64,000 nucleotides of DNA from an uncultured Actinomycetes bacterium (GTDB taxonomy: Bacteria > Actinomycetota > Thermoleophilia > Gaiellales > JAICJC01): contig CAVSFZ010000026.1 of assembly GCA_963727235.1 (NCBI GenBank), positions 65,286 to 129,285 of the forward strand. The letters are read 5' to 3'. Shown piece by piece: positions 16,811-53,717 of the stretch (position 1 is the first letter of the stretch; each line of letters opens with the position of its first letter). The translations under genes and the position numbers were made by a program. Below the pieces are notes generated by a model. That model was not told where the DNA came from. It did no database searches and was given only the letters and a program-made list of their open reading frames with translations.

Positions 16811-16843
16811 GTGAATAAAAGGTGCCTGGCACCTTTTATTCAC
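16811..16843. repeat. palindromic element, copy 1 (33-nt perfect palindrome); probable bidirectional terminator
   Basis: GTGAATAAAAGGTGCC-T-GGCACCTTTTATTCAC. The rluD stop TGA (16840-16842) lies inside it. An A-tract and a T-tract flank the GC core. Confidence 0.85.
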
Positions 16844-29711: not shown

Positions 29712-30489
29712 CCACCGGACTGTGGTCGGAGAGCCTGAGCGGGCGGCCGCCGTTGAGCTGCAGATCCCGCCGCTTGGGGGGCCAGCGGGCGGCCGGACCG
29801 GCCAATGTCAGACCGCGCACGAACAGGTGGTCGACGCCGACGCCGGCCGGCCCGTCCCCCCAGCCGCGCGCGGCCAACCGCCGCAGCGCCAGGGAGCCGG
29901 CATGTACGTTGAGATCGCCCCCGAACACCATCGGCGCACCCCGGGCAAACTGCTCCAGCGCCCAGCTGGCGGCCTCGATCTGAGGGTCGGCATCGTGTGC
30001 GTCGGCATGCACGTTGCCGACCACGAACTCGGCGCCGCTGCGACGATGCCGCAGGCGCACGAGCTGCGCCACGCGGGGCTCACCACGCAGATGGCGGCGG
30101 GAGTTGACCTGCACCCTGCGGGCCGACACCAACACCAGCTCGGGGCCGTACAGGACGGCCTGGGCCTGCCCCTCGAACTGCGTCTTGACCATGTCGGGCA
30201 GCGCGTTTCCCAGCCACTCGCCCGCCGCCAACGGCAGCGGGATGTGCACGAACGGTATGTGGGCGCCGTAGGTGTGGGCCAGGGTCACTCCCATGTCGGT
30301 GCGCTTGCGCAGCAGCGAGGCGGCCCACACCGGCACCTCCTGCAGCATCACCACGTCGGGCCGGTCGGCAGTGATCAGATCGGCCATCTCCCCCAGCAGC
30401 TTGCGGTGGGCATGCCCGTACTCCGGGCCGGGGGGCACGTCACGTCCGTGGGCAATGTTCCAGGTGCGCACCAGCAACGGGTCGGTCAT
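29686..30489 (-). CDS. endonuclease/exonuclease/phosphatase (EEP) family protein
   Basis: WNIAHGRD..., VVMLQEV, GDLN, and a C-terminal SDHSPV motif. Confidence 0.75.
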   Translation of the reverse strand: MTDPLLVRTWNIAHGRDVPPGPEYGHAHRKLLGEMADLITADRPDVVMLQEVPVWAASLLRKRTDMGVTLAHTYGAHIPFVHIPLPLAAGEWLGNALPDMVKTQFEGQAQAVLYGPELVLVSARRVQVNSRRHLRGEPRVAQLVRLRHRRSGAEFVVGNVHADAHDADPQIEAASWALEQFARGAPMVFGGDLNVHAGSLALRRLAARGWGDGPAGVGVDHLFVRGLTLAGPAARWPPKRRDLQLNGGRPLRLSDHSPVDARVVFSA

Positions 30490-30533
30490 AGGCGCCCAAG
30501 CCTAGCGAACCGGCCCGGCGGCCCCGATAGGAT

Positions 30534-30887
30534 TTGCGCGTGTGGTTCCTCCGGCCCAAGCCCCAGTTTGCCGACCTGATCCAGGTGCAGCTCGAGCTGT
30601 TCGAGCGTGAGCACCATCAGCTGCTCGAGCAGGTGGCCGCTGCCGAGCAGCAGTACCGCCGTGCCCGAGGCCCCGAATCCGAGGAGCTGTACGGCGACTA
30701 CATGGATCTGGTGGAAGCAGCCGAAGACGATCTCTTGGCGCTGCGCGACCGGTACGCCGAGACGATGGCGGCCCGCGAGCGCCGCCGGTATGAACGGGAG
30801 TTCACGCGCACGGCGGAGCGGACGCTGCCCACTCTGGTGGCACGCCGCCACTACCTGCGGGCGATCGACCCCGACAACGATCTGTGA
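30534..30887 (+). CDS. hypothetical helical, charged protein
   Basis: 117-aa ORF (TTG at 30534, or GTG at 30540) with coiled-coil-like composition. GTGA-coupled to dedA. Confidence 0.45.
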   Translation: MRVWFLRPKPQFADLIQVQLELFEREHHQLLEQVAAAEQQYRRARGPESEELYGDYMDLVEAAEDDLLALRDRYAETMAARERRRYEREFTRTAERTLPTLVARRHYLRAIDPDNDL

Positions 30888-31474
30888 ACACCGTTCTCGA
30901 GTGGTTCGGCCGCTACGGGTACTACGCGGTCTTCTTCCCGGTGCTGCTGGAACCGGTCGGGATCCCGTTTCCGGCGGAGACGATCCTGCTGGCGGGAGGG
31001 GCGACTGCCAAGCTGGGACATCTGGACCTGGTGCTGGTGATGGGAGTCGGCTTTGCCGCAGCCGTGATCGGCGGCACCCTGGGGTTCGAGATCGGTCACC
31101 GGGGAGGCAAGCCCCTGATCGACTGGGCTGTGCAGCGGCATCTGGTGAAGCAGGTGCATGTCGATCGGGTGGTGGCGTTCTTCGATCGCCACGGCGGCAA
31201 GACGCTGGTGTTCATCCGATTCGTGCCCGGTGTCCGCATCCCCACCTTCTGGATGGCCGGCGCCAGCGGTATGCAGCTGCGCGTCTTCATGTTCTGGAAT
31301 GTGCTCGGTGCGGCGCTGTGGACGACCGTCATCATCCTGATCGGGTACGTCTTCGCAAGCTCTGTGGATGCGATCTCGCAGCTCCTGGGCCGAGATGTGG
31401 CCGTGGCCGGGATCGTGATTGTGGCGATCGCCGTCGGTGTCTATGAGGTGCGTCGCCGGCTCCGCCCCAAATGA
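30884..31474 (+). CDS. dedA: DedA-family membrane protein
   Basis: YGYYAVFFPVLLEPVGIPFPAETILLAGG and FIRFVPGVR motifs. 196 aa. Confidence 0.85.
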   Translation: MNTVLEWFGRYGYYAVFFPVLLEPVGIPFPAETILLAGGATAKLGHLDLVLVMGVGFAAAVIGGTLGFEIGHRGGKPLIDWAVQRHLVKQVHVDRVVAFFDRHGGKTLVFIRFVPGVRIPTFWMAGASGMQLRVFMFWNVLGAALWTTVIILIGYVFASSVDAISQLLGRDVAVAGIVIVAIAVGVYEVRRRLRPK

Positions 31475-31483
31475 CAGAAGGGC

Positions 31484-31512
31484 TTGATTATCGAACGTAT
31501 GTTCGATAGTGT
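31484..31512 (+). promoter_or_regulatory. candidate imuB promoter: TTGATT-N17-TAGTGT
   Basis: -35 TTGATT (31484-31489), a 17-nt spacer, and -10 TAGTGT (31507-31512). The ATG is at 31525. Confidence 0.5.
31489..31508. promoter_or_regulatory. LexA SOS box (Gram-positive / actinobacterial type)
   Basis: Perfect palindrome TATCGAAC-GTAT-GTTCGATA. The core TCGAACGTATGTTCGA matches TCGAAC-N4-GTTCGA. It fills the spacer of the candidate promoter, 17 nt upstream of the imuB ATG. Confidence 0.85.
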
Positions 31513-31524
31513 GGGGAGCCCTCT

Positions 31525-32721
31525 ATGCCTCGGAATCACCGCACAATTGTCTGCACAATCGTCCCCCGCTTCGCCTTGCGGGTGGCCGCCGGCAACGAGG
31601 GTCGCCTGGCCGATCAGCCGCTCGCACTGGGCCCCGAGCCCGGCGGCCCTCCCCACATCGGCGAGGCCAGTGCAGCCGCTGCTGCCCACGGAGTCCGCGC
31701 CGGCATGCGGGTGGGCGAAGCGATCGCCCGCTGCCCCCAGCTGCAGCTGGTAACGCCCGATCCTGGAGCGGTGGCCATCGCCAACGAGGAGTTGCTCAGC
31801 CGGCTGGAACACCTCGGCGCGGCGGTGGAACCACTCGCACCCGGCGCCTCATTGTTTGCCGCCGACGGTCTTACGCGGCTGCATCACGGCACCATGCGGC
31901 TCTTGCACACGGTCTCCGCCGCGCTGCCCACGGGAGGTCGTGTCGGAGCCGGGCCGGGCCGCTTCATCGCCCGGGCGGCGGCGGCCAAGGCCCGCCACCG
32001 GCAACCGTTCACCGTTGAGCCCGGTGCCGCCGCCGGCTTTCTCGCCCCGTTGGCCGTTGCCCAACTCGACCTCGAGCCGTCACTCTGTGCCCAGCTGACC
32101 ACGCTCGGAATCGCCACCATCGGCGATTTGGCGGCGCTGCCGCTGCCGGCGGTGGCCGATCGCTTCGGCCGGAGTGGAATCGAGGCTTGGCGCCTGGCAC
32201 GCGGCGAGGACGAAGCTCACGTGATCCCCCGGATGCCGCCCGAGCCGCTGCGCGAGATGATCGAGTTCCCCGACCCCGTCGGTGATGAGCTGACGCTGCG
32301 CGGCGCCATCGCCGTCCTGGTCGATCGGCTGCTGGCCAACCCCGCCCGCAGAGGCCGACCGGCTCGCTCGGTCACGATCTCTGCCAGGTTGGCGGCGGGG
32401 GGATCGTGGCGACGACCGATCGCACTTCGTGACGCCACTGCCGAGCCGCGCCGGCTGCGGGATGCCGTCAGCCCGCGGCTGACGGAACTGCCCGCGGCGG
32501 TCATCCAGCTCGAGCTGGAGCTGACTGAGCTGGCCCAAAGCGGGGCCCAGCAGCTGTCGCTGCTGCATCCGCCCGAAGAGCTCTTGCGCGAGCGGGCGGC
32601 CGAGGCGGCCAAGCAGGTGCGCGCCGGCGTGGGTGAGGGCAGCCTGTGGCGAGTGGTCGAAGTCGCACCGTGGTCACGGGTCCCCGAGGGGCGCGACCTG
32701 CTGATCCCGTTTGACGGTTGA
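31525..32721 (+). CDS. imuB: ImuB-like catalytically inactive Y-family DNA polymerase
   Basis: Overall Y-family layout, but the N-terminus IVCTIVPRFALRVAAG lacks the catalytic D.D/E acidic residues. It is SOS-boxed, and dnaE2 is nearby. At 398 aa it is short for ImuB. Confidence 0.75.
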   Translation: MPRNHRTIVCTIVPRFALRVAAGNEGRLADQPLALGPEPGGPPHIGEASAAAAAHGVRAGMRVGEAIARCPQLQLVTPDPGAVAIANEELLSRLEHLGAAVEPLAPGASLFAADGLTRLHHGTMRLLHTVSAALPTGGRVGAGPGRFIARAAAAKARHRQPFTVEPGAAAGFLAPLAVAQLDLEPSLCAQLTTLGIATIGDLAALPLPAVADRFGRSGIEAWRLARGEDEAHVIPRMPPEPLREMIEFPDPVGDELTLRGAIAVLVDRLLANPARRGRPARSVTISARLAAGGSWRRPIALRDATAEPRRLRDAVSPRLTELPAAVIQLELELTELAQSGAQQLSLLHPPEELLRERAAEAAKQVRAGVGEGSLWRVVEVAPWSRVPEGRDLLIPFDG

Positions 32722-33648
32722 CGGCTCCCACACGAAGCTTGCGACCGCCACCACCACCATCAGCAGCGTGGCGGCCAGCGCGACGTGCACTGCCACCAAC
32801 TGCCACGGGAGGCCGTTGCGGTACTGCACCTCCCCCACGATTGCCTGACAACCGAGCAGCACAACCGCTGCCAGCGCCAGCCGTGCCGGCACCGTATGCG
32901 CCGCGCGGCGCCACAGCCACACGGCCAGCACCACCAGCAGGACAGTGAAGATGGTCGCGATGCGGACATGCAGCCAGGTCGACCGGTAGAAGTTCCACAG
33001 CCGCTCGATGGGGGTGTCGGTGCTGCCCGGATGAGGGCCGGAGGCGGTCACGAACGCCCCGGTGGTGACCAGCGCGAGACCGCCGATCGCGGTCACCCAG
33101 GCCAGTCCACCCATGCGCCGATCGCCGAGCAGCGCCGGGCCTCCCCGGTCGAGTCGGACAGCCCGCACGGTCACCCACGTCCACACTGCCACCACCACCA
33201 TCGCCAGCAGGAAATGCGACATCACCAGGAACGGATTGAGATCGAGCGCCACGGTGAGCGCTCCCAGGGGCACCTGGGCGATCGTTCCCAACGCCGCGGC
33301 CGCGGCGGCCAGCCTGACACCGCGACCGAGCCCAGCGGTGCGTCGAGCCATCACGGCCGCGATCACCGTCACGACCATCGCGATCCCCGAGATCACACGG
33401 TTGGAGAACTCGATCAACGCGTGGCCGGACGCCTGAGGTACAAGGCTGTTGGCCTCGCAGGTGGGCCAGTGCGGGCAGCCGAGGCCCGAGGCGGTCAGCC
33501 GCACCAGAGCACCCGTTGTGACCACCAGCCACAGCAGCCCGAGCGAGATCGCGGCGACGTACATGAACGTGTGGGCCGACACCCCGCGGCGTGCGGTCAA
33601 CCCGATCGGAGGGCGAGGGATGTCGGCGTCGTCGACTGAGTGGGACAT
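32674..33648 (-). CDS. ctaA: heme A synthase (COX15/CtaA)
   Basis: LVRLTASGLGCPHWPTC motif and a multi-TM protein rich in His. I preferred the ATG at 33648 over the TTG at 33708. Confidence 0.85.
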   Translation of the reverse strand: MSHSVDDADIPRPPIGLTARRGVSAHTFMYVAAISLGLLWLVVTTGALVRLTASGLGCPHWPTCEANSLVPQASGHALIEFSNRVISGIAMVVTVIAAVMARRTAGLGRGVRLAAAAAALGTIAQVPLGALTVALDLNPFLVMSHFLLAMVVVAVWTWVTVRAVRLDRGGPALLGDRRMGGLAWVTAIGGLALVTTGAFVTASGPHPGSTDTPIERLWNFYRSTWLHVRIATIFTVLLVVLAVWLWRRAAHTVPARLALAAVVLLGCQAIVGEVQYRNGLPWQLVAVHVALAATLLMVVVAVASFVWEPSTVKRDQQVAPLGDP

Positions 33649-33720
33649 GCCTGACCGGAGCGTATCGCCGATCGCCGAACCGTTCGTCCATCCCCCTTTG
33701 CAGGACAAATTTACAGTTTA

Positions 33721-33749
33721 TTGACCAGGTGACTTGAGTAACCTACTCT
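33721..33749 (+). promoter_or_regulatory. candidate sigma70-type promoter: TTGACC-N17-TACTCT
   Basis: Lies in a stretch that is ~47% GC by hand count (33701-33780). It is followed by the GGAGGGAGAGG ribosome-binding site and the GTG at 33785. Confidence 0.5.
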
Positions 33750-33784
33750 TCCCCGGTTAGTCCTTTCAGGGAGGGAGAGGTCGA

Positions 33785-34939
33785 GTGAAGCTCCGGGCAT
33801 TACGGGGGGCGCTGCCCCTGCTGGTACTCATGGCCGCGCTGATGATTGCGGCGGTCGCCGACGCCGCGACGGTGGCCAACAAGCCGCTGGGATCGGTTCA
33901 GGCCAACGGCAAGGTGAACGTGATCGTGATCAGCGGGAACACGGCGTACCTGGGTGGCGCATTCACTGCGATGCGACCGGCGGGATCGACCACCGGCGGC
34001 ACCACGCGTAATCACGCCGCTGCGGTTGATCTCAGCACGGGTGCGCTGCTTCCGTGGAATCCAAACGTCAACAGCGCCGTCAACTCACTGGCCGTGTCGG
34101 GAAGCACGGTCTACATCGGCGGCGTGTTCTCGACGGTGGGGAGCTCGAGCCGTAAGAACATCGCGGCCGTCAACGCGAGCACCGGCGCCGTCATCACCGG
34201 GTTCAAGACCGCCAACGTGAACCACGGCGTGTATGCCATCGCGCCGTCGGGCTCGCACCTGTACATCGGTGGAGCGTTCACAACCATCGGCGGAGCTCCG
34301 CGGGCATACGCGGCCGACGTCAGCCCCACCTCGGGAGCGCTCAATCCGGGATTCGCCCCGGTGCTCGACAACCAGGTGCGTGCGATCACACTGACATCGG
34401 ATGGGATCGTGCTGGGCGGAAACTTCACCACTCTCAACGGGGCGTCGAGCGTCTCGATCGGCAAGGTCAACTCGTCCGGTGGATCGATGACGTGGAACTG
34501 GCACGGCCCGCCGGGCGGCGGCACCCATCCGTTCCAGGTGGACGCGATCACACAGGACTCCACCGGAATCTATGCCGCAGGCACCGGCAACGGCGGCTCG
34601 TTCATGAAGTTCAACTCACAGGGCGACCTGCAGTTCATCGGCGGCACCAACGGCAACGTCACCGCGCTGGGACTGGACGGCGGCTACCTGTACGTGGGCG
34701 GCCACTTCCAGGGCTACTGCGGTCTGATCATGGGCAACAACTTCTGCACCGTGGCTGCGACCCGCCACAAGCTGCTGGCTGTCAGCACCAGCGACGGCAG
34801 CCTGCAGAGCTGGAACCCGACGGCCAACATGGCGCTGGGCGTGTTCGCGATGGATGCGGGTGGCGGTCACGTCGCGGTTGGTGGTGACTTCACCAAGATC
34901 GGCGGCGTCACCCAGCAGGGATTCGCCCGGTTCGGCTGA
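33785..34939 (+). CDS. secreted protein with a 7-bladed beta-propeller-like repeat
   Basis: Signal peptide MKLRALRGALPLLVLMAALMIAAVADA, then about 7 repeats of the V.A[IL]A.SGS.[LV]YIGG.F[TS]..GG..R...A.V....G pattern. The family is not verified. Confidence 0.7.
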   Translation: MKLRALRGALPLLVLMAALMIAAVADAATVANKPLGSVQANGKVNVIVISGNTAYLGGAFTAMRPAGSTTGGTTRNHAAAVDLSTGALLPWNPNVNSAVNSLAVSGSTVYIGGVFSTVGSSSRKNIAAVNASTGAVITGFKTANVNHGVYAIAPSGSHLYIGGAFTTIGGAPRAYAADVSPTSGALNPGFAPVLDNQVRAITLTSDGIVLGGNFTTLNGASSVSIGKVNSSGGSMTWNWHGPPGGGTHPFQVDAITQDSTGIYAAGTGNGGSFMKFNSQGDLQFIGGTNGNVTALGLDGGYLYVGGHFQGYCGLIMGNNFCTVAATRHKLLAVSTSDGSLQSWNPTANMALGVFAMDAGGGHVAVGGDFTKIGGVTQQGFARFG

Positions 34940-34947
34940 GCGTGATC

Positions 34948-34976
34948 GGGGGTGGCGGGGCGGGCCCGTCACCCCC
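34948..34976 (+). terminator. GC-rich hairpin after the propeller gene
   Basis: GGGGGTG (34948-34954) pairs with CACCCCC (34970-34976), beginning 9 nt after the stop. There is no clear U-tract. Confidence 0.3.
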
Positions 34977-35035
34977 CTTCGTCCGACGCAATCGGTGTCA
35001 TACTTCGACGAGCGGTTTTGCCACACCGCGGAAGG

Positions 35036-35218
35036 ATGGCTCGGGCTCCAGTGTCGGAAAAAGAATTGATCCTGTGTACGACGTGCCGGAAAGAGACTCC
35101 GCACGTCGTCGGCATGGTCATGGGCGGAGAGCCGCTCAAGCTCGTGCTCACCTGCGAGGTCTGCGGCAAGCGGCTCGAGAGCATCCCGCCGCCACCCAGC
35201 CCCAAACCCGGGGCATGA
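35036..35218 (+). CDS. small zinc-ribbon protein (60 aa)
   Basis: The ATG at 35036 follows GGAAGG. Two CxxC pairs: CTTC...CEVC. Pro-rich tail. Confidence 0.45.
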   Translation: MARAPVSEKELILCTTCRKETPHVVGMVMGGEPLKLVLTCEVCGKRLESIPPPPSPKPGA

Positions 35219-35234
35219 TTGCCAGACCCAAGGG

Positions 35235-35855
35235 TCAGTAACCCCGGAAGGGTTCCCACAGTACGATTGCCTGCTTGGCCGCGTCGCAGACAGGGGTCAC
35301 GTCGACCGTGAGGCGCGTCTCGGGGATGCTCAGGCCGGGCCACTCACACACGAACGTGAGCTCGCCCGGCGGTGGGAGGGGCCACAGCCAGTATCGCCAC
35401 TCCCAGCTGCCTCCACCGCCGCCGCCACCGTGCTCCGACAACAAGGGGCCATCGGGCGGAGTTTTCTCCTCAGTGGCCCCGTGTGCCACGATCCTGCCGG
35501 GAGCGCCGCCGTAGGTTGCGGCGGACGATCCATCCGCCAAGATCACACCGAGCCACAACCCCCGCTCGGCCAGGTTGCGACGCATCACCCGAGGAGTCAG
35601 GTGCATCTCCTCGTCGAACTGCTCTGCGACCTGCCTGCTTCCAGCGCGAGTCTCAACCTGAAACGACACCCCCGTCGGGTAGGCGACAACCCGCGTCACC
35701 ACCACCACCAAGTCAGCGCGCTGTACCAAGACCGCCCTCAGCGCGACCGGCATTCCCAGCACGTTCGTAGGCTCCGCGAACCACTCCGGCGGCGCCCACC
35801 AATCCGGGTCATCCGGCGGCTCGTCGGGCGGTGGTGGGGGATCGAAGAATCCCAC
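35235..35855 (-). CDS. hypothetical Pro/Trp-rich protein (206 aa)
   Basis: MGFFDPPPPPDEPPDDPDWWAPPEWF... followed by a Gly7 run, then WEWRYWLWPLPPPGELTFVCEWPG. Coherent ORF, no family recognised. Confidence 0.5.
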   Translation of the reverse strand: MGFFDPPPPPDEPPDDPDWWAPPEWFAEPTNVLGMPVALRAVLVQRADLVVVVTRVVAYPTGVSFQVETRAGSRQVAEQFDEEMHLTPRVMRRNLAERGLWLGVILADGSSAATYGGAPGRIVAHGATEEKTPPDGPLLSEHGGGGGGGSWEWRYWLWPLPPPGELTFVCEWPGLSIPETRLTVDVTPVCDAAKQAIVLWEPFRGY

Positions 35856-35916
35856 ACTTCCAACTTACCCCACGAGCAGCGTAAACTGTGCGTATCGTTA
35901 CTTCGGGGGTGTCGCG

Positions 35917-36267
35917 GTGCAGTGCAGCCATTGCGGAGGTGTGGTCGATCGGGAGTTCCGATACTGCCCTTGGTGCTCGATGGCGCAGGTCGGCAAGGCC
36001 GTCGCGCAGTTCCCTCCCCACCCCGAGGTTGACACTCCCGGTCGCGGGCTGCGCGTGTCGCGCTACTTCGATCCAGAGGTCGGCCCACTGCACACCCGCT
36101 TGAGCATCTACGACGCCGAGGGACGGGTCACCAGCGTGGTCGCGCTTGACGACGAGCACACCGCGGGGCTGTCCAAGTTCCTGCACACCCTGGCGGATGA
36201 CGCACCGACCGAGCGCATCGGCGACCCGTTGAAACGGTTGGTCGAGAGGCTCGATCCTCGGGGCTGA
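35917..36267 (+). CDS. zinc-ribbon-containing hypothetical protein (116 aa)
   Basis: GTG start. The N-terminal CSHCGG...YCPWC forms a four-Cys ribbon, followed by a globular C-terminal region. Confidence 0.5.
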   Translation: MQCSHCGGVVDREFRYCPWCSMAQVGKAVAQFPPHPEVDTPGRGLRVSRYFDPEVGPLHTRLSIYDAEGRVTSVVALDDEHTAGLSKFLHTLADDAPTERIGDPLKRLVERLDPRG

Positions 36268-36299
36268 CGCGCCGGCGGCCGCTTGGGTATCCTGCGGGA

Positions 36300-36554
36300 A
36301 TGGCGAAGCGAACGTCTGTTCGACAGATCGGCCTCCCCCGCAAGGTCAGGGTGATCTGCGACCGCGACGGCATCCCCACCGCCGTCGCCGATCGCTCGGT
36401 GGAGCATGTGCGCGACGAGTGGCGGGTGGATGAGGGCTGGTGGACGGGGAACAGGACGCATCGCCGCTATTTCGACCTGGTGCTTGAAGACGGCCGCAAC
36501 GTGGTGGTCTTCTGGGATCACCGCGGCCACCAGTGGTTCGGCCAGCGGGTGTGA
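36300..36554 (+). CDS. 84-aa protein resembling a stand-alone ImuB C-terminal module
   Basis: The segment EWRVDEGWWTGNRTHRRYFDLVLEDGRNVVVFWDHRGHQWFGQRV matches the GWW-x(n)-R[DR]Y[FY]-x(n)-G-x(n)-W pattern I recall at the C-terminus of long ImuB proteins. The stop TGA lies inside palindrome copy 2. Confidence 0.5.
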   Translation: MAKRTSVRQIGLPRKVRVICDRDGIPTAVADRSVEHVRDEWRVDEGWWTGNRTHRRYFDLVLEDGRNVVVFWDHRGHQWFGQRV

Positions 36555-36586
36555 ATAATTGGTGCCTGGCACCAATTATTCACACC
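36548..36586. repeat. palindromic element, copy 2 (39-nt perfect palindrome)
   Basis: GGTGTGAATAATTGGTGCC-T-GGCACCAATTATTCACACC. Contains the stop codon of ORF 36300-36554. Confidence 0.85.
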
Positions 36587-36935
36587 TCGGATCAATCACG
36601 GCTGGCGCGGCGGGCGGAGCGGAGGCGTGGCAAAGCCACGTTGAGCACCGCACCACCGCGTGGGACGCCGCCAGAACCGGCGCGGACCAGCCTCAGAGTA
36701 GGTGTGGCCGGCGCCTCAGTGAGACGCCGGCCACAGGGAGGGCCTGACGAAGACGACCGGGGTTGTCACTCCTGCTGGGGAGGCGTGATCGTCATCGCCA
36801 GACAAGGTGAATACTACGGGGTATTTGCCAAGATTTCACGGGTAGAAGTGTTACAGATCAGTCACAAAACACTCGCTAACCCCATTGCAAACGAATAATG
36901 GACAGACCGAAATAGGGCAGTTTCCAGATCCTGGC

Positions 36936-36965
36936 TTGACCGATTACGGCCACGTCTGGCATACT
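36936..36965 (+). promoter_or_regulatory. candidate promoter: TTGACC-N18-CATACT (TGg extended -10)
   Basis: Lies in a stretch that is ~49% GC by hand count (36841-36960). It is followed by the GGAGGGGG ribosome-binding site and ATGATG at 37010. Confidence 0.5.
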
Positions 36966-37009
36966 CGATCGTCCGACGCGTGTGCTTGGCTATCGCGTCG
37001 GAGGGGGTA

Positions 37010-37312
37010 ATGATGAGCGAGCCGGCAGCGTCCGTGGAGCACACAGTCATCACGTCCGAGGACGTCCTCGAGGATGTCGTGGCTGCGCCGCGCGCGTACA
37101 TGTATCAGGTGCATGTGCGCCGCCGGAGGGGATTCTGGAAGCGCTGGCAAGGACGGGTCGTAACCCGCGACCTGCAGGGCACCCGCAGGTTCTGGCCGTG
37201 GCGCATGAGCCATGATCGCGATCGCCTGGTGCAGCAGCTGTGGGAAGAGACGATGCGCGATATCCAGTGGCGAAACAGCGACACGCCGGTGGAGATCGTC
37301 GAGGTTTCCTAG
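37010..37312 (+). CDS. hypothetical 100-aa Arg/Trp-rich protein immediately upstream of dnaE2
   Basis: Good ribosome-binding site (GGAGGGGG-taATG). Sequence runs MMSEPAAS...VHVRRRRGFWKRWQGRVVTRDLQGTRRFWPWRMSHDRDRLVQQLWEE.... No family recognised. Confidence 0.5.
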   Translation: MMSEPAASVEHTVITSEDVLEDVVAAPRAYMYQVHVRRRRGFWKRWQGRVVTRDLQGTRRFWPWRMSHDRDRLVQQLWEETMRDIQWRNSDTPVEIVEVS

Positions 37313-37327
37313 AAGCGCTATGCTGAC

Positions 37328-37351
37328 CTGATCGAACACATGTTCGGTCAG
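37328..37351. promoter_or_regulatory. LexA SOS box upstream of dnaE2
   Basis: CTGATCGAAC-ACAT-GTTCGGTCAG is a 10+4+10 palindrome with one mismatch. The core TCGAACACATGTTCGG is at 37332-37347 and ends 7 nt before the dnaE2 ATG. Confidence 0.85.
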
Positions 37352-37353
37352 TC

Positions 37354-40300
37354 ATGCAGTACCCAGAACTCCACGCCCACTCCTGCTACTCGTTTCTCGA
37401 CGGCGCCTCACAGCCTGAGGAGATGGCGATGCGCGCCGCCAAGCTGGGCTACTCGACGCTTGCGCTGACCGACCACGACAGCCTGTCGGGATCCCTGGAG
37501 TTCGCCAACGCCGCCCACGACGCCGGGCTGCGCCCCATCACCGGCTGCGAGCTGACCCTGGTCGACGGCTCCCACCTGACCCTGCTGGTCGAGAACGAGC
37601 ATGGCTACCGGAATCTGTGCCGGCTGATCACCGTCGCTCACCGCGACGATCGCCGAGCACCCAGTACCACGCTCGACCAGGTCGCCCGCCACGCCGAGGG
37701 GCTGCACTGCCTCTCCGGTTGTGCCCGCTTGGGCGCAGTGGCTCGGCCGATGGGCCGGGGGCAGGTGCGTGAGGCGGAGCGCATCGCCCGGAAGCTGCGA
37801 GGAATCTTCGGCCGTGACCGCTTCGCCATCGAGATCAACCGGCCCTACTGGCGCGGTGACGCTCGCCGCAACCGGCTTTTGACCGAGCTGGCCGGCGCTC
37901 TGCGAGTGCGCCTGGCCGGCACCGGCGACGTGCACGCCCACTCTCCCCGCCGGGCCTTTCTCCAAGACGCGCTGGTCGCGATCCGGTGCAACTCCACGCT
38001 GGACGCGAGCGAAGCAGAGCGACGGGGAAACCACGAGTCGGTGCTGCGCACGCCGGACGACGCTGCCCACCTGTTTTCAGCCGAGGCCACCCGCGGCGCG
38101 ATCGAGGTGGCCGATCGCTGTCGATTCGACCTGACCCGCGATCTGGGGTATCGCTATCCCGACTTCTCGGACACCGGAGAACCGGCGCAGGCCGTATTGG
38201 AGCAGCTGTGCCGAGCCGAGCTCGACCGCCGCTACGCCGGCACCGGCATGGTCGCCGAAGCACGTCAGCGACTCGAGCAGGAGCTGGGCTTGATTGCCCA
38301 TCACCAGCTGGCAGGGTTCTTCCTGCTCCACCGAGACATCCTCGAGATGGCGCGGGCGGTGGCGGTGCGCGTGCGCGGTCGCAGCGCCGGGCGCAGACTC
38401 CTCCCCCCCGGCCGCGGTCGCGGCTCCAGCGTGGGATCGATTGTGTGCTATCTGATCGGGCTGTCTCATGTCGATCCGGTGGAGACGCGCCTGTTCCTGG
38501 GCCGGTTCCTCTCCAAGGATCTGGCCAGCGTCCCCGACATCGACCTCGACTTCCCCCGAGACGTGCGCGAGGGGTTGATGCTGGACGTGATCGAGCGATA
38601 CGGATCCGACCACGCCGCGTTGGTGGCGGCGTTCCCCACCTACAAGACCCGGGGCGCGATCCGCGATCTCGGCAAGGCGCTGGCACTCCCGCAGGGCGAG
38701 ATCGAGCGGATGGCCCGGCTGGCCGACTCATGGGGCCGGATCGAGCCCGAGCAGGTGGAGGAGCTGCGCGGCCGTCTGGACGCGCCCCGCTGGAAGGCGT
38801 TCTCGTTTCTGATGGAGGAGATCAGCGGCCTGCCCCGCCACCTCTCCCAGCACTCCGGCGGAATGGTGATCTCGACCACCCCGCTGGTGGAGCTGGTGCC
38901 GGTGATCCCGGCAGCCATGCAGGGGCGCCAGATCTGCCAGTGGGACAAGGACTCGTGCGCGGATGCCGGATTTCTCAAGATCGACCTGCTCGGTCTGGGG
39001 ATGCTCTCTGCAGTGGAGGAGTGTGTGGATCTGATCGCCCAGTCACGCGGCGCGCCGATCGATCTCAGCCGAGTCGGATTCGATGATGCCGACGTTTTTG
39101 CCGAGATCCGCGCGGCCGACACGGTGGGCGTGTTCCAGATCGAGAGCCGCGCCCAGATGCAGTCGCTGGTACAGACCAAACCGGAGAATCTCGCCGACCT
39201 GACGGTGCAGGTGGCGCTGGTGCGACCCGGCCCGATCGTGGGCGATGCGGTCAACCCGTACATCAAGCACCGGCGCGCCCGGCGGGATGACCCATTCTTC
39301 GAGCCCCCCTATGACCACCGGCTGCTGGAGCCGGTGCTGAACGACACGCTGGGCGTGGTGGTGTTTCAGGATCAGGTGCTCGAGGTCGCGATCGCACTGG
39401 CCGGATTCACCACCGGCGAGGCCGAGAGCCTGCGCCGGGCGATGAGCCGCAAGCGCAGCCGTGAGGCACTCGAGAGCCACTGGATCCGATTCCGCGATGG
39501 ATCCGCCGAGAACGGGGTGTCCGAAGAGACCGCCCGCACGGTGTTCGACAAAGTGGTCGCCTTCTCGGAATTCGGCTTCCCCAAGAGCCACGCCGCCGCC
39601 TTCGCAATCCTCGCCTACCAGTCGGCATGGCTCCACCGCGCCTACCCCGCGGAGTTTCTCTGCTCACTCCTGAACGCACAGCCGATGGGCTTCTACCCTC
39701 CGGCAACGCTCTTGCGCGACGGTGAGCGGCGCCAGGTCGAAACCCGCCCGCCGGACGTCAACCTCAGCCTGGCCGCCTGCTCGGTGGAGGATCACGGCGC
39801 GGCCATCCGGATCGGGCTGGGCTACGTCAAAGGTGTCGGTACCCGCTCCGAGCTGCTGGTCTCCGAGCGCGACCGAAACGGGCCCTTCACCGATCTGGGC
39901 GACCTGGTGCGGCGCTCACCGCTTGCAATCGACCTGCTGGAGTCGCTGGTCAAAGCCGGCGCCTGCGATCGGTTCGGCGACCGCCGGCAGCTGCTGTGGG
40001 AGCTACGGCTGCACCGCGCCCCCGCGGGCCCCGAGCACGCTCGCCAGCTGGCACTGGCACTCGACTCCGCCCCCACCCCGAAGCTTCGGCCGATGAGTGA
40101 TTGGGAGCGGATGGTGGCAGACCACGAGACCATGAGTCTCACCACCGGCCCCCATCCGATGGCGCTGCTGCGACCCAACATCGCGGAGGAGATCCGCTCT
40201 GCTGCATCACTTCGCGACGGTACCGGCGGCCATGTGACGATCGCAGGGGTGATGGTTGCCCGGCAGCGGCCCTCGACGGCCAAGGGCATCGTGTTCCTCT

Positions 40301-40617
40301 TGGTGGAGGACGAGTCCGGCATGGTCAACGTGGTGGTGCCGGCAAAGATCTACGAGCGTGATCGGATCGCGATCCGATCAGAGCCGCTGGTGCAGATATG
40401 GGGTCGGCTGGAGCGTCGCAACGACACCCTCAACGTGATCGCCGAACGGGTCGCGGCGCTGTCACATGTGGCCAGGCCGGAGATCCGCGCCCAGGCGGAG
40501 CGGGCCGCCGCCCGAGCGGCAGGTACCGGGGCCGGGCAGGGCGGCCGGGTGGCCGACATGCGGGCGCTGAAGGCTGCGGTGCCACGCGGTAACAGCTGGG
40601 GCCAGGGACGGCGTTAG
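37354..40617 (+). CDS. dnaE2: error-prone DNA polymerase DnaE2 (ImuC)
   Basis: 1087 aa. PHP N-terminus MQYPELHAHSCYSFLDGAS. Second C-family alpha subunit in the window, SOS-boxed, with no tau/beta-binding C-terminal extension like that of dnaE. Confidence 0.93.
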   Translation: MQYPELHAHSCYSFLDGASQPEEMAMRAAKLGYSTLALTDHDSLSGSLEFANAAHDAGLRPITGCELTLVDGSHLTLLVENEHGYRNLCRLITVAHRDDRRAPSTTLDQVARHAEGLHCLSGCARLGAVARPMGRGQVREAERIARKLRGIFGRDRFAIEINRPYWRGDARRNRLLTELAGALRVRLAGTGDVHAHSPRRAFLQDALVAIRCNSTLDASEAERRGNHESVLRTPDDAAHLFSAEATRGAIEVADRCRFDLTRDLGYRYPDFSDTGEPAQAVLEQLCRAELDRRYAGTGMVAEARQRLEQELGLIAHHQLAGFFLLHRDILEMARAVAVRVRGRSAGRRLLPPGRGRGSSVGSIVCYLIGLSHVDPVETRLFLGRFLSKDLASVPDIDLDFPRDVREGLMLDVIERYGSDHAALVAAFPTYKTRGAIRDLGKALALPQGEIERMARLADSWGRIEPEQVEELRGRLDAPRWKAFSFLMEEISGLPRHLSQHSGGMVISTTPLVELVPVIPAAMQGRQICQWDKDSCADAGFLKIDLLGLGMLSAVEECVDLIAQSRGAPIDLSRVGFDDADVFAEIRAADTVGVFQIESRAQMQSLVQTKPENLADLTVQVALVRPGPIVGDAVNPYIKHRRARRDDPFFEPPYDHRLLEPVLNDTLGVVVFQDQVLEVAIALAGFTTGEAESLRRAMSRKRSREALESHWIRFRDGSAENGVSEETARTVFDKVVAFSEFGFPKSHAAAFAILAYQSAWLHRAYPAEFLCSLLNAQPMGFYPPATLLRDGERRQVETRPPDVNLSLAACSVEDHGAAIRIGLGYVKGVGTRSELLVSERDRNGPFTDLGDLVRRSPLAIDLLESLVKAGACDRFGDRRQLLWELRLHRAPAGPEHARQLALALDSAPTPKLRPMSDWERMVADHETMSLTTGPHPMALLRPNIAEEIRSAASLRDGTGGHVTIAGVMVARQRPSTAKGIVFLLVEDESGMVNVVVPAKIYERDRIAIRSEPLVQIWGRLERRNDTLNVIAERVAALSHVARPEIRAQAERAAARAAGTGAGQGGRVADMRALKAAVPRGNSWGQGRR

Positions 40618-41150
40618 AACGGGACGGTGGCTCGCAGCGCGGGCAGCTTGCTGCAGCGGTTGCCGCCGTCGCTCGGCCTGATGGCCGTCCATCGCACCAG
40701 CCGGATGAACACACACTCGGTCGCCCCGGCGGTGGCTCTGGCGCACGCCCAGTGGGCGCTGCTGCCGGGCACCTTGGCGCAGGTGAAGCGGGTATCGCCG
40801 CCCACGTGCCGGGTGACGTCGGCGGCGACCGCCTGCGCGTCGACGGTGGTGGGCAGCATCTTCTCCAGAGCCGGCAGATCGCAGCGCGTGGGGTTGGGAG
40901 TGCCGGCTGCCACATGACCGGTGACTGACACGCCCACGACCACGCATTCCGACTCGGCCGGGTACACCACTGCACACGCCCACAGTGACCCGTTGGCCTT
41001 GAGTTCGCTGCATCCGATCGTCGATCCCGGATTCCGCAGCGCGATGTGGTCCTGGACCGTGGCCGCGTCGGCCCGCTGCCGGAGCTTGGCGTACCACAGT
41101 CCGCCGGCGAGGAGCACGATCACCAGCGAAACGGCAATGGGCCATTTCAT
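40614..41150 (-). CDS. membrane-anchored protein with an internally duplicated 4-Cys domain
   Basis: N-terminal TM segment MKWPIAVSLVIVLLAGGLWY, then two ~66-aa repeats that share the pattern C..[x]..WAC..[x]..EC..[x]..RC..LPAL. Confidence 0.6.
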   Translation of the reverse strand: MKWPIAVSLVIVLLAGGLWYAKLRQRADAATVQDHIALRNPGSTIGCSELKANGSLWACAVVYPAESECVVVGVSVTGHVAAGTPNPTRCDLPALEKMLPTTVDAQAVAADVTRHVGGDTRFTCAKVPGSSAHWACARATAGATECVFIRLVRWTAIRPSDGGNRCSKLPALRATVPF

Positions 41151-41194
41151 TGGGCGAGCATACCGCGCTCACGGCAGGGGATTGGCGAGTCGCG

Positions 41195-41431
41195 CTAGAC
41201 GAACAGATCTACAACGAGGGTAATCAGGAAGACGACTGCGAACCAGGCGAAGGCCGCCGCAACGATCGCAAGCACCACGTGTGCCTGCGCCCATTCCAGC
41301 AATCCACCGCGGCTCTCGTACTCCCACGAATCCTCGCTGGAGACGCCGACGCGTTCGAACAGAGATTCCTTCATTCCCTGAGCATACGGGCGGCGCCGCC
41401 GATCGCCAAGCCCATGTTCGGGGGGCTCCAT
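41195..41431 (-). CDS. small tail-anchored membrane protein, paralog B
   Basis: ...SEDSWEYESRGGLLEWAQAHVVLAIVAAAFAWFAVVFLITLVVDLFV. The ATG at 41431 overlaps the stop of paralog A (TGATG); an alternative ATG lies at 41374. Confidence 0.5.
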   Translation of the reverse strand: MEPPEHGLGDRRRRPYAQGMKESLFERVGVSSEDSWEYESRGGLLEWAQAHVVLAIVAAAFAWFAVVFLITLVVDLFV

Positions 41432-41616
41432 CACATCACCAAATCGATGATCAGGGTGAGCGTGTAGAGGATCGCAAACCACGTCAGCGCGGCCGCGACC
41501 GTTGCCACCACGACGTGTCTCACCGTCCAGTGGTGCAACCCATCGTCGTCCGTGTACTCCCACGCCTCATCGGCGTCGACTTGGTGGCGCATCGAGACCC
41601 CCTCCACGCGATTCAC
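41431..41616 (-). CDS. small tail-anchored membrane protein, paralog A
   Basis: ...DADEAWEYTDDDGLHHWTVRHVVVATVAAALTWFAILYTLTLIIDLVM. Colinear with paralog B. Confidence 0.5.
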   Translation of the reverse strand: MNRVEGVSMRHQVDADEAWEYTDDDGLHHWTVRHVVVATVAAALTWFAILYTLTLIIDLVM

Positions 41617-41736
41617 AATCTCTCATCGGCACTCAGGGGCGCAAAGTCGGACACCCGGGAGGGTGATCCCCCGGTGCGGGCCAAACGAAATGCTTACAGG
41701 ACGTTCACCGGGTACTGCAGGTGCGGGTGCCAGGGT

Positions 41737-42660
41737 GTGCGTATCCGCGCTCCGCTCCGAACAGTTGCTCTCGCGTTTCTCGTATGCACCGCGCTCGGTG
41801 TCACCGCCGCACCGGCGCTGGCCAGCCAGATGGTGGCTTTCGGTGTGCACAAGCCCGGGCTGATCGTCAACCGCCACGGCGTCGCACGAGTCTCGTACAC
41901 CACGTCCGCCGGTGTGCGGAAGCATGTGCTTGCCTGGGGTGCGATCAACGCGCTCACGCCCCGCCAGGGCGCCCGCCAGGTGCACTTCAAGTTTGACTAC
42001 TCGGGCGGACATGCGTCGTTCGGGAACGGCTACTGGAAGCGGATGCACAACTACTGCCGCCGCTACACAGGGCCCCGACTGACTCATCTGGTGGTTGCCT
42101 GCGATGCGCCCGACGGGTCGCACTGGGCGCTGCAATCGTGGCGTCGCGAGCTCAAGGACGGCGGCTGGGTGGGCACCGCCCGGCAGCAGGCGCCGGAGAT
42201 GCACCTCTCGCATTGGACCGGCAAGATGGCTCAGCTGTTCATGGACACCTCGTGGCTCCAGAGCGGCCGGTTCGATCGAGTGTTCGGCTACCTGCACTAC
42301 GACTCCAAGGGCGTGTACGGCTTCTCCGCCACGGCGGTGGGTGCGCCGACCGACAGCTTTGGCCGCAACATGTACATCGACACCCACAATCCGGCCTGGG
42401 GCAAAGGCTGGTTCCGCTTCAACTCCGGTCTGACCCATCGCACCGCCGGCAACTTCTGCCTCGGGCTCTATAGGCTCTACGGCCGTACCAATCCCGCCCG
42501 CGGCGACGCCTATCGCCTGACCGTGATGGGCCCCGGCGTGACGCCGATCGTCTCGCGGACGCACAAGGCGCCGGGTAGGTATTCCGCGGCGGTCGCCAAG
42601 CGCAAGCAGGCCGAGCTCAACTCGTTCACGCCCGCCAGCGACTCCTGCCGCAACGGCTAG
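41737..42660 (+). CDS. secreted hypothetical protein (307 aa), rich in aromatic residues and Gly
   Basis: The only in-frame start before the signal peptide is the GTG at 41737 (VRIRAPLRTVALAFLVCTALGVTAAPALA). The mature part is rich in W, Y, H and G. No family recognised. Confidence 0.55.
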   Translation: MRIRAPLRTVALAFLVCTALGVTAAPALASQMVAFGVHKPGLIVNRHGVARVSYTTSAGVRKHVLAWGAINALTPRQGARQVHFKFDYSGGHASFGNGYWKRMHNYCRRYTGPRLTHLVVACDAPDGSHWALQSWRRELKDGGWVGTARQQAPEMHLSHWTGKMAQLFMDTSWLQSGRFDRVFGYLHYDSKGVYGFSATAVGAPTDSFGRNMYIDTHNPAWGKGWFRFNSGLTHRTAGNFCLGLYRLYGRTNPARGDAYRLTVMGPGVTPIVSRTHKAPGRYSAAVAKRKQAELNSFTPASDSCRNG

Positions 42661-53636: not shown

Positions 53637-53669
53637 GGTGAATAGCGGTGCCTGGCACCGTTATTCACC
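53637..53669. repeat. palindromic element, copy 3 (31-nt core, one G/A arm mismatch)
   Basis: G-GTGAATAGCGGTGCC-T-GGCACCGTTATTCAC-C. Each arm is one nt shorter than in the other copies. Confidence 0.8.
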
Positions 53670-53680
53670 CCGACCGCCCG

Positions 53681-53717
53681 GCGTGAATAAATGGTGCCTG
53701 GCACCATTTATTCACGC
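53681..53717. repeat. palindromic element, copy 4 (37-nt perfect palindrome)
   Basis: GCGTGAATAAATGGTGCC-T-GGCACCATTTATTCACGC. The TAA stop of the GNAT gene (53708-53710) lies inside it. Its centre is 46 bp from the centre of copy 3. Confidence 0.85.

Follow-up and report, generated by a model that had tools for sequence, protein, structure and literature searches.

Organization of the locus

The window analyzed here, a 64,000-nt stretch of contig CAVSFZ010000026.1 from an uncultured bacterium of the order Gaiellales (class Thermoleophilia), carries on its + strand three genes related to the ImuB-DnaE2 mutasome. The first one (31525..32721) encodes a 398-aa Y-family protein with Pfam IMS and IMS_C domains, hereafter iPolY, the predicted inactive polymerase 'body' of a split ImuB. 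The second is an 84-aa open reading frame (ORF) running from ATG to TGA (36300..36554), here called imuB-C because its product resembles the C-terminal domain of ImuB. The third (37354..40617) encodes the 1087-aa error-prone C-family polymerase DnaE2, which matches the NCBIfam model NF004225 'error-prone DNA polymerase' (960.7 bits, cut-off 939) and contains the Pfam domains PHP, DNA_pol3_alpha, finger, HHH_6 and OB. A preliminary description of the window had drawn attention to the 84-aa ORF as a putative interaction module encoded 3.6 kb away from the polymerase body, near dnaE2. Our analysis confirmed the ORF and its sequence on the + strand, and the gene coordinates agree with this distance, as iPolY lies 3.6 kb upstream of imuB-C, with COX15/CtaA and other genes in between.

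A genome scan using one genome per GTDB species identified 274 genomes with an ImuB-C relative, and the best 80 were used for a survey of loci. Without exception, these 80 belong to Thermoleophilia (Gaiellales, Solirubrobacterales and Thermoleophilaceae), the nearest to the window sharing 96% identity with it (L008). Hereafter, L-numbers (L001-L086) designate the loci of relatives, and P-numbers (P0018, P0077, P0111) designate proteins matched by the profile of the 84-aa protein.

The 84-aa ORF is a conserved free-standing gene

The base composition of the ORF (GC content of 0.85 at third and 0.46 at second codon positions) resembles that of the 52 further genes predicted in this high-GC window. 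Ratios of nonsynonymous to synonymous substitutions (dN/dS) calculated against three orthologues were 0.11, 0.16 and 0.41, indicating purifying selection. A word-indexed search returned 19 close homologues, all of them stand-alone proteins of 51-98 aa, one carrying the annotation of a Gaiellales metagenome-assembled genome (MAG). Alignment of these homologues revealed 17 invariant positions, chiefly tryptophans, arginines and aromatic residues located in the C-terminal two thirds of the protein. The invariant residues include W41, W47, W48, W79, R38, R55 and R83, and R56 and R66 come close to invariance. Furthermore, a hidden Markov model profile search of 1.8 billion cluster representatives recovered 1,191 of them at E≤1e-3, of which 338 reached E≤1e-10; most by far were 80-110 aa long.

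An SOS (LexA) box, CGAACgtctGTTCG (36309..36322, +, core at 36310), overlaps codons 4-8, and the apparent conservation of the N-terminus is thus partly conservation of DNA. In principle, the ORF could be a spurious call, the remnant of a pseudogene, or merely a side effect of regulatory DNA that is itself conserved, such as this box or a promoter. We consider this extremely improbable, as the dN/dS of 0.11-0.41 applies to the entire ORF, third codon positions have the composition of a gene, and conservation peaks at residues 34-83, at a distance from the box. The family counts about 1,200 representatives, its fold is predicted with confidence, and the same protein is kept in relatives whose SOS box sits outside the ORF. 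Our results show that the 84-aa ORF is a real, conserved, free-standing gene. A start codon downstream of the box (GTG at 36351) was considered and rejected, since fused relatives conserve residues 10-28, which make up a confidently predicted first strand, and the N-terminus is the same in loci where the box is located upstream.

The 84-aa protein is homologous to the C-terminal domain of ImuB

The 84-aa protein had no match at E≤1 in scans of Pfam-A and NCBIfam. Conversely, its profile matched the C-termini of two proteins containing IMS domains, P0077 (525 aa, hmmsearch E 4e-18) and P0111 (484 aa, E 5e-16). Both have N-terminal IMS/IMS_C Y-family modules, and it is their last ~65-80 residues that correspond to the 84-aa family. 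As Pfam and NCBIfam scans of these fused relatives reported IMS and IMS_C only, the two databases appear to be devoid of a model that detects the ImuB-C domain.

A tblastn search against plasmids produced a match at the 3' end of a gene annotated 'DNA polymerase Y family protein' on a plasmid of Candidatus Manganitrophus. This gene belongs to a cassette with the order lexA, RecA-like, Y-family and error-prone polymerase, in which the RecA-like protein has its best matches to the RecA, ImuA and ImuA' models. Judging from its gene content, the cassette is a canonical imuA-imuB-dnaE2 unit. Comparison of the 84-aa family profile with the ImuB of this plasmid using hhalign gave a probability of 96.8% (E 2e-10) over residues 436-495 of 499. 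Furthermore, BLASTP aligned the ImuB-C of the window with Sphaerobacter thermophilus ACZ39476 (E 3e-13), a protein labelled 'ImuB-C' in a recent supplement (PMC12926913). The resemblance to ImuB C-termini proposed in the preliminary description was thus upheld by three independent types of comparison.

AlphaFold2 predicted an all-beta protein with six strands and no helix (mean predicted local distance difference test score, pLDDT, 85.7). A profile search of Protein Data Bank (PDB) sequences with the 84-aa family returned chance matches only (E>0.07), and Foldseek found nothing below E 1 in the PDB for the predicted model. This lack of structural match agrees with the report that ImuB-C adopts a 'novel beta-barrel fold' (PMC12926913). 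The 84-aa protein also has the properties of the ImuB-C superfamily defined by Aravind et al. in 2013 (PMC3765255), namely profile homology to the domain located C-terminal to the polymerase module of ImuB, a small size (~80 aa), a mainly beta structure devoid of a catalytic residue pattern, a conserved tryptophan at the C-terminus, and no fewer than two conserved basic residues. It is not a member of any curated Pfam or NCBIfam family. From this homology, we conclude that the product of the 84-aa ORF is the ImuB C-terminal domain in free-standing form.

The local Y-family protein is a predicted inactive polymerase that ends at the fusion junction

In iPolY, the positions aligned with the Escherichia coli DinB catalytic residues D8, D103 and E104 are occupied by I12, a glycine and an alanine. 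Because all three acidic residues are replaced, iPolY is predicted to be catalytically dead. iPolY shares 41% identity with the N-terminal ~440 residues of the fused protein P0077, and its C-terminus reads ...SLWRVVEVAPWSRVPEGRDLLIPFDG. Its stop codon, after ...SRVPEGRDLLIPFDG, falls at the fusion junction, where fused proteins go on (...SRVPERR...) into a linker and ImuB-C. Therefore, as had been described from the sequence, the local ImuB-like protein is 398 aa long and has no C-terminal module. Neither observation that would have undermined the initial proposal was made: homology of the 84-aa protein to ImuB C-termini is readily detected, and the 398-aa protein does not align end-to-end with full-length ImuB.

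Three elements were recognized in the C-terminal part of iPolY. The sequence QLSLL (aa 343-347, 32551..32565, +), read directly from the protein, is a candidate beta-clamp-binding motif given its likeness to the known clamp-motif consensus of the QL[SD]LF type. The form Q-x-x-L-[LIM] is conserved in orthologues. It is followed by a motif resembling the N-terminus of RecA (RecA-NT), EELLRERAAEAAKQVRAGVGEGSLWRVVE (aa 351-379, 32575..32661, +), which was identified by local alignment to residues 3-32 of E. coli RecA. This alignment scored 36, compared to 20.3 ± 3.8 for shuffled sequences, of which 6 out of 2,000 reached that score. The protein ends with a conserved tail, VAPWSRVPEGRDLLIPFDG (32662..32718, +), located where the linker to ImuB-C begins after SRVPERR in fused relatives, and this tail may serve as a docking peptide for the free ImuB-C. 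For Conexibacter woesei ADB52665, a published table (PMC6511836 Table S4) marks the equivalent stretch as a RecA-NT motif and the tail as a conserved C-terminal one. The gene located upstream of iPolY encodes a DedA/VTT membrane protein.

SOS boxes accompany each gene detached from the operon

The palindrome GAAC-N4-GTTC was observed 4 times in the window for 0.4 expected, and three of these four sites, found at iPolY, imuB-C and dnaE2, have the extended form CGAAC-N4-GTTCG. The box preceding iPolY, tCGAACgtatGTTCGa (31493..31504, +), lies between a -35-like hexamer (TTGATT) and a -10-like hexamer (TAGTGT). It is positioned 28-32 nt before the start of the gene in every Gaiellales locus that contains this start. 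The box of dnaE2, tCGAACacatGTTCGg (37334..37345, +), is found 9 nt before the start codon and directly downstream of a -10-like TATGCT hexamer. The initial description had placed the polymerase body under a single SOS box; the box at 31493 was confirmed, while those at 36310 and 37334 had been missed. The fourth site (30792-30803) is located inside a 117-aa ORF (30534-30887), lacks the CGAAC/GTTCG flanks and is absent in L003. It is probably non-functional as an operator.

The box of imuB-C is part of its coding sequence. In the window and in about 20 related loci (including L003, L008-L015, L017, L019-L021, L030 and L046), it is read as AAG CGA ACG TCT GTT CGA, encoding K-R-T-S-V-R, and forces the use of two rare codons, CGA (10% of Arg) and GTT (5% of Val). 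In compact operons devoid of this box, the peptide R-T-Y-V-R is retained and the corresponding DNA is CGCACATACGTACGC. A putative promoter, CTGACG-18 nt-TATCCT (36264..36293, +), has a -10 hexamer that ends 6 nt before the ATG. It scores below the threshold of our consensus scan; a TANNNT hexamer ends 6-7 nt before the imuB-C start codon in at least 9 divergent orthologous loci, and it is present in all of the loci whose box occupies codons 4-8. This spacing suggests that the imuB-C mRNA is leaderless and that LexA would occupy roughly +10 to +23. Elsewhere in Gaiellales, the box is found directly upstream of imuB-C and abuts the -10 hexamer, a layout that is also leaderless.

We observed that the distribution of SOS boxes follows the breaks in the operon. 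For this comparison, iPolY was considered adjacent when located ≤150 nt upstream of imuB-C, and separated when located further upstream within 8 kb. Of the 46 loci in which dnaE2 is detached from imuB-C, 45 have a separate box for dnaE2, compared to none of the 32 in which the two genes abut. Likewise, imuB-C has its own box in 22 of 25 loci with a separated iPolY (one of the three exceptions being the fused L086) and in 18 of 21 with no iPolY seen upstream, compared to only 2 of 34 with an adjacent iPolY. This pattern provides strong comparative evidence that iPolY, imuB-C and dnaE2 have all been kept in a predicted LexA regulon and act together.

Gaiellales share the split state, and the operon was dispersed in the lineage of the window

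Among the 80 surveyed loci, ImuB-C is encoded by a separate ORF in 79 and is fused in one (L086), every sampled Gaiellales genome being split. dnaE2 is located downstream of imuB-C in 78, and the contigs of the remaining two stop before dnaE2 could appear. The position of iPolY is more variable: 34 loci have it adjacent upstream, 25 have it further upstream (≤8 kb), and 21 show no iPolY upstream. Compact iPolY-imuB-C-dnaE2 operons, often with overlapping stop and start codons, are found for example in L004, L022 and L066. The window and its closest relatives (L003 and L008-L011) exhibit a dispersed layout instead, with COX15/CtaA and other genes between iPolY and imuB-C, and a gene of ~100 aa between imuB-C and dnaE2. 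The breakup of what was once a compact operon into three units, each with SOS control of its own, is clearly a derived trait of this lineage.

The initial interpretation of the locus was a domain fission. The module is indeed encoded by an ORF of its own, but the idea of a local, derived event does not hold: because the split state is common to every sampled Gaiellales genome, no change in domain architecture took place locally. At a deeper level, a fused ImuB could have been ancestral and split secondarily into iPolY and ImuB-C in an ancestor of Thermoleophilia. We examined this scenario using a neighbour-joining tree of polymerase bodies, built from a single protein, devoid of support values and rooted on canonical fused ImuB. 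The three fused forms (P0077, P0111 and L086) fell inside the Solirubrobacterales-type half of the tree, near its base, a position that would suit an ancestral fusion, as would the far wider distribution of fused, canonical ImuB and the coincidence between the end of iPolY and the domain junction. However, 79 of 80 genomes are split, split modules are also known from Chloroflexi, Firmicutes and Deinococcus, and the authors of family surveys prefer the split module as a possible precursor of fused ImuB (PMC6511836; PMC12926913). Parsimony on this unsupported tree required about 2-3 fusions versus about 3-4 fissions, which is not decisive. Therefore, domain fission is unproven, and we regard a secondary fission as the less probable history, albeit one with a real chance of being correct.

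In several related MAG contigs, imuB-C, iPolY or dnaE2 is frameshifted or fragmented (L058, 8001-8517; iPolY in L008 and L052; dnaE2 in L001/L002), as exemplified by the 136-aa P0018 and by dnaE2 genes called as 2-3 pieces. Such interruptions more likely reflect indel errors of the assemblies than pseudogenes.

A probable split-ImuB mutasome without a neighbouring imuA

The locus has the hallmarks of the split-ImuB module: a Y-family protein with a disrupted active site, a RecA-NT-like motif, and a conserved linkage of iPolY, imuB-C and dnaE2. With the canonical mutasome, it shares LexA/SOS boxes, and it lacks a C-terminal domain on the same polypeptide and an adjacent imuA or imuA'. None of the 15 neighbouring proteins matched the ImuA, ImuA' or RecA models, and a single divergent ImuA query, compared by tblastn with the window and with 89 loci (±8 kb in relatives), returned nothing better than E 0.98. 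We conclude that the three genes very probably encode a split-ImuB SOS mutasome of Gaiellales, composed of a dead iPolY bearing clamp-binding and RecA-NT-like motifs, ImuB-C as a small subunit, and DnaE2. As there is no imuA gene nearby, RecA presumably takes the place of ImuA.

This arrangement is not new, having been published in 2013, 2019 and 2026, including for Conexibacter woesei, a member of the same class. Timinskas and Venclovas described in 2019 an iPolY-ImuB-C-DnaE2 variant devoid of ImuA and proposed RecA as a substitute (PMC6511836), with C. woesei listed as iPolY->ImuB-C->{1}->DnaE2 (PMC6511836 Table S4). The 2026 survey refers to a DnaE2X-iPolY-ImuB-C-RecA module, or 'split ImuB', and scores C. 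woesei as DnaE2X=1 in its supplement (PMC12926913). Like the published systems of the Kyrpidia tusciae type (PMC6511836; PMC12926913), the window encodes a Y-family polymerase that is predicted to be inactive and has both a RecA-NT-like motif and a conserved tail, together with a stand-alone ImuB-C (~85-95 aa in the published systems) and DnaE2, with no ImuA nearby. The C-terminus of its iPolY (...VVEVAPWSRVPEGRDLLIPFDG, 398 aa) is close to that of Sphaerobacter (...VVEVEPWSRIPERRRALISFDP, 397 aa) and to the tail of Conexibacter. Unlike the published systems, its genes are dispersed, with iPolY 3.6 kb upstream and an additional gene of ~100 aa before dnaE2, each unit has an SOS box, and the box of imuB-C lies inside the coding sequence.

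The canonical ImuA(ImuA')-ImuB-DnaE2 systems of Mycobacterium, Caulobacter and Pseudomonas have in common with the window LexA control, an ImuB-C domain, a catalytic DnaE2, and an inactive Y-family scaffold with clamp and RecA-NT motifs. They differ from it by an ImuB-C fused to ImuB and a RecA-like ImuA encoded beside imuB, whereas ImuB-C is separate in the window and no ImuA is found in its neighbourhood. Geobacter sulfurreducens has an operon, lexA-imuB-C-polY (GSU0042; PMC3765255), that also combines a free, SOS-regulated ImuB-C of ~80 aa with a Y-family polymerase; unlike in the window, the polymerase is of the active DinB type and there is no DnaE2.

Following the models published for the mycobacterial mutasome and for the DnaE2X-iPolY-ImuB-C-RecA complex, DNA damage would lead to cleavage of LexA and derepression of the three promoters, resulting in the joint production of iPolY, ImuB-C and DnaE2. 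ImuB-C would then dock onto DnaE2 and onto the C-terminal region of iPolY, together with RecA. iPolY would deliver the complex to the beta clamp, allowing mutagenic synthesis across the lesion by DnaE2. We infer the role of RecA, the leaderless promoter and the physical contacts, the latter by analogy with these models. AlphaFold-Multimer models of five split-ImuB systems are confident (interface predicted TM score, ipTM, ~0.8), and ImuB-C rests on the PHP domain of DnaE2 in the model of the mycobacterial complex (PMC12926913).

Three points weigh against a mutasome of this composition. First, no iPolY gene lies within 8 kb of imuB-C in about one quarter of the Gaiellales loci, and imuB-C is consequently linked far more tightly to dnaE2 than to iPolY. 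Second, the absence of imuA rests on the window and on ±8 kb around the loci of relatives, and in part on a single divergent query. Third, Aravind et al. proposed that ImuB-C binds DNA lesions rather than acting as a protein adaptor (PMC3765255).

The tight linkage to dnaE2 makes it plausible that ImuB-C is first of all a DnaE2 subunit. In its stronger form, with ImuB-C as an accessory subunit that works without iPolY, the latter being an independent SOS gene, this explanation is possible but rather unlikely. In its favour, the genes of ImuB-C and DnaE2 touch or overlap in 32 loci, and dnaE2 follows in 78 of 80. iPolY is absent for at least 5 kb upstream in 13 loci and separated in 25 more, and DnaE2B systems linked to ImuB-C only have been published. 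However, in the 34 loci with an adjacent iPolY, one SOS box serves all three genes. Furthermore, iPolY retains its clamp motif, RecA-NT motif and conserved tail, and its conservation despite the loss of catalytic residues fits the role of a scaffold.

We give a still smaller chance to ImuB-C being a sensor that binds damaged DNA instead of an adaptor between proteins, as already suggested in 2013. The invariant arginines and tryptophans (R38, R55, W41, W47, W48 and W79) would suit binding to nucleic acids. Nevertheless, the C-terminal extension of ImuB binds DnaE2 and ImuA' in mycobacteria, and published complex models place ImuB-C on the PHP domain of DnaE2. The two roles are also mutually compatible.

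The split-ImuB mutasome proposed here adds Gaiellales, an uncultured soil lineage, to the bacteria equipped with an ImuA-less, split-ImuB DnaE2 system. Across 80 genomes, the presence of one box for each detached gene supports a joint action of iPolY, ImuB-C and DnaE2 in the SOS response. These observations also confirm ImuB-C as an autonomous module that stays beside dnaE2, which fits the published view of ImuB-C as the DnaE2-binding element of the mutasome. No new question is opened by the locus, as the module, the domain and the likely architecture are already in the literature.

A conserved gene of ~100 aa between imuB-C and dnaE2

The additional gene of the dispersed layout, orf99 (37013..37312, +), is conserved and has no assigned function. 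Its family is rich in tryptophan and arginine; among the 46 loci with imuB-C and dnaE2 apart from each other, 28 (Gaiellales) have a member of this family in the interval. In the window, orf99 is preceded by a sigma-70-like promoter site (TTGACC-18-CATACT, 36936-36965) with no SOS box. Its product had no match in Pfam, NCBIfam or the PDB, the AlphaFold2 model was poor (pLDDT 54), and the word-indexed search returned only 5 close homologues. The possibility that orf99 encodes a diverged second ImuB-C was rejected given an hhalign probability of 0.6%. A broader proposal, which is in our opinion doubtful, would make orf99 a fourth, lineage-specific component of the Gaiellales split mutasome, perhaps a specialized accessory or regulatory subunit that covers some of the functions of ImuA. 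In the same proposal, the LexA operator moved into codons 4-8 of a leaderless imuB-C, a single 14-nt stretch thereby specifying R-T-x-V-R as well as the repressor site. The details of the operator inside imuB-C and of orf99 seem not to have been described before.

Other features surrounding imuB-C

Two small proteins of the zinc-ribbon type are encoded upstream of imuB-C (34952-35218 and 35917-36267). The first of these genes is kept in L003 as a 54-aa gene immediately upstream of imuB-C. In the window, the two are separated by an extra 206-aa gene on the minus strand (35235-35855), the product of which has no family match.

Downstream of imuB-C, a conserved GC-rich hairpin (GTGGCCGGCG...CGCCGGCCAC) was found by comparing window positions 36700-36800 with positions 10265-10370 of L003. 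After it comes a block of strong conservation, AGGGAGGGCC...GACCGGGGT..TCACTCCTGCTGGGGAGG.CGTGATCG. The hairpin and block could be a terminator lacking a T-tail or a small RNA. A scan of positions 30000-42000 with Rfam returned no match.

Finally, a perfect AT-rich palindrome of ~33 bp, GTGAATAA(WW)GGTGCC-T-GGCACC(WW)TTATTCAC, is present in three copies in the window (16811-16843, 36551-36583 and 53683-53715), with an additional degenerate copy near 53650. The copy following imuB-C is part of an insertion of ~140 bp, which L003 lacks and which only the 96%-identical L008 has in common with the window. The palindrome could act as a terminator in both directions or as a binding site for a protein, or it could be a small mobile element of palindromic type, and its two variable positions change in a compensatory manner.

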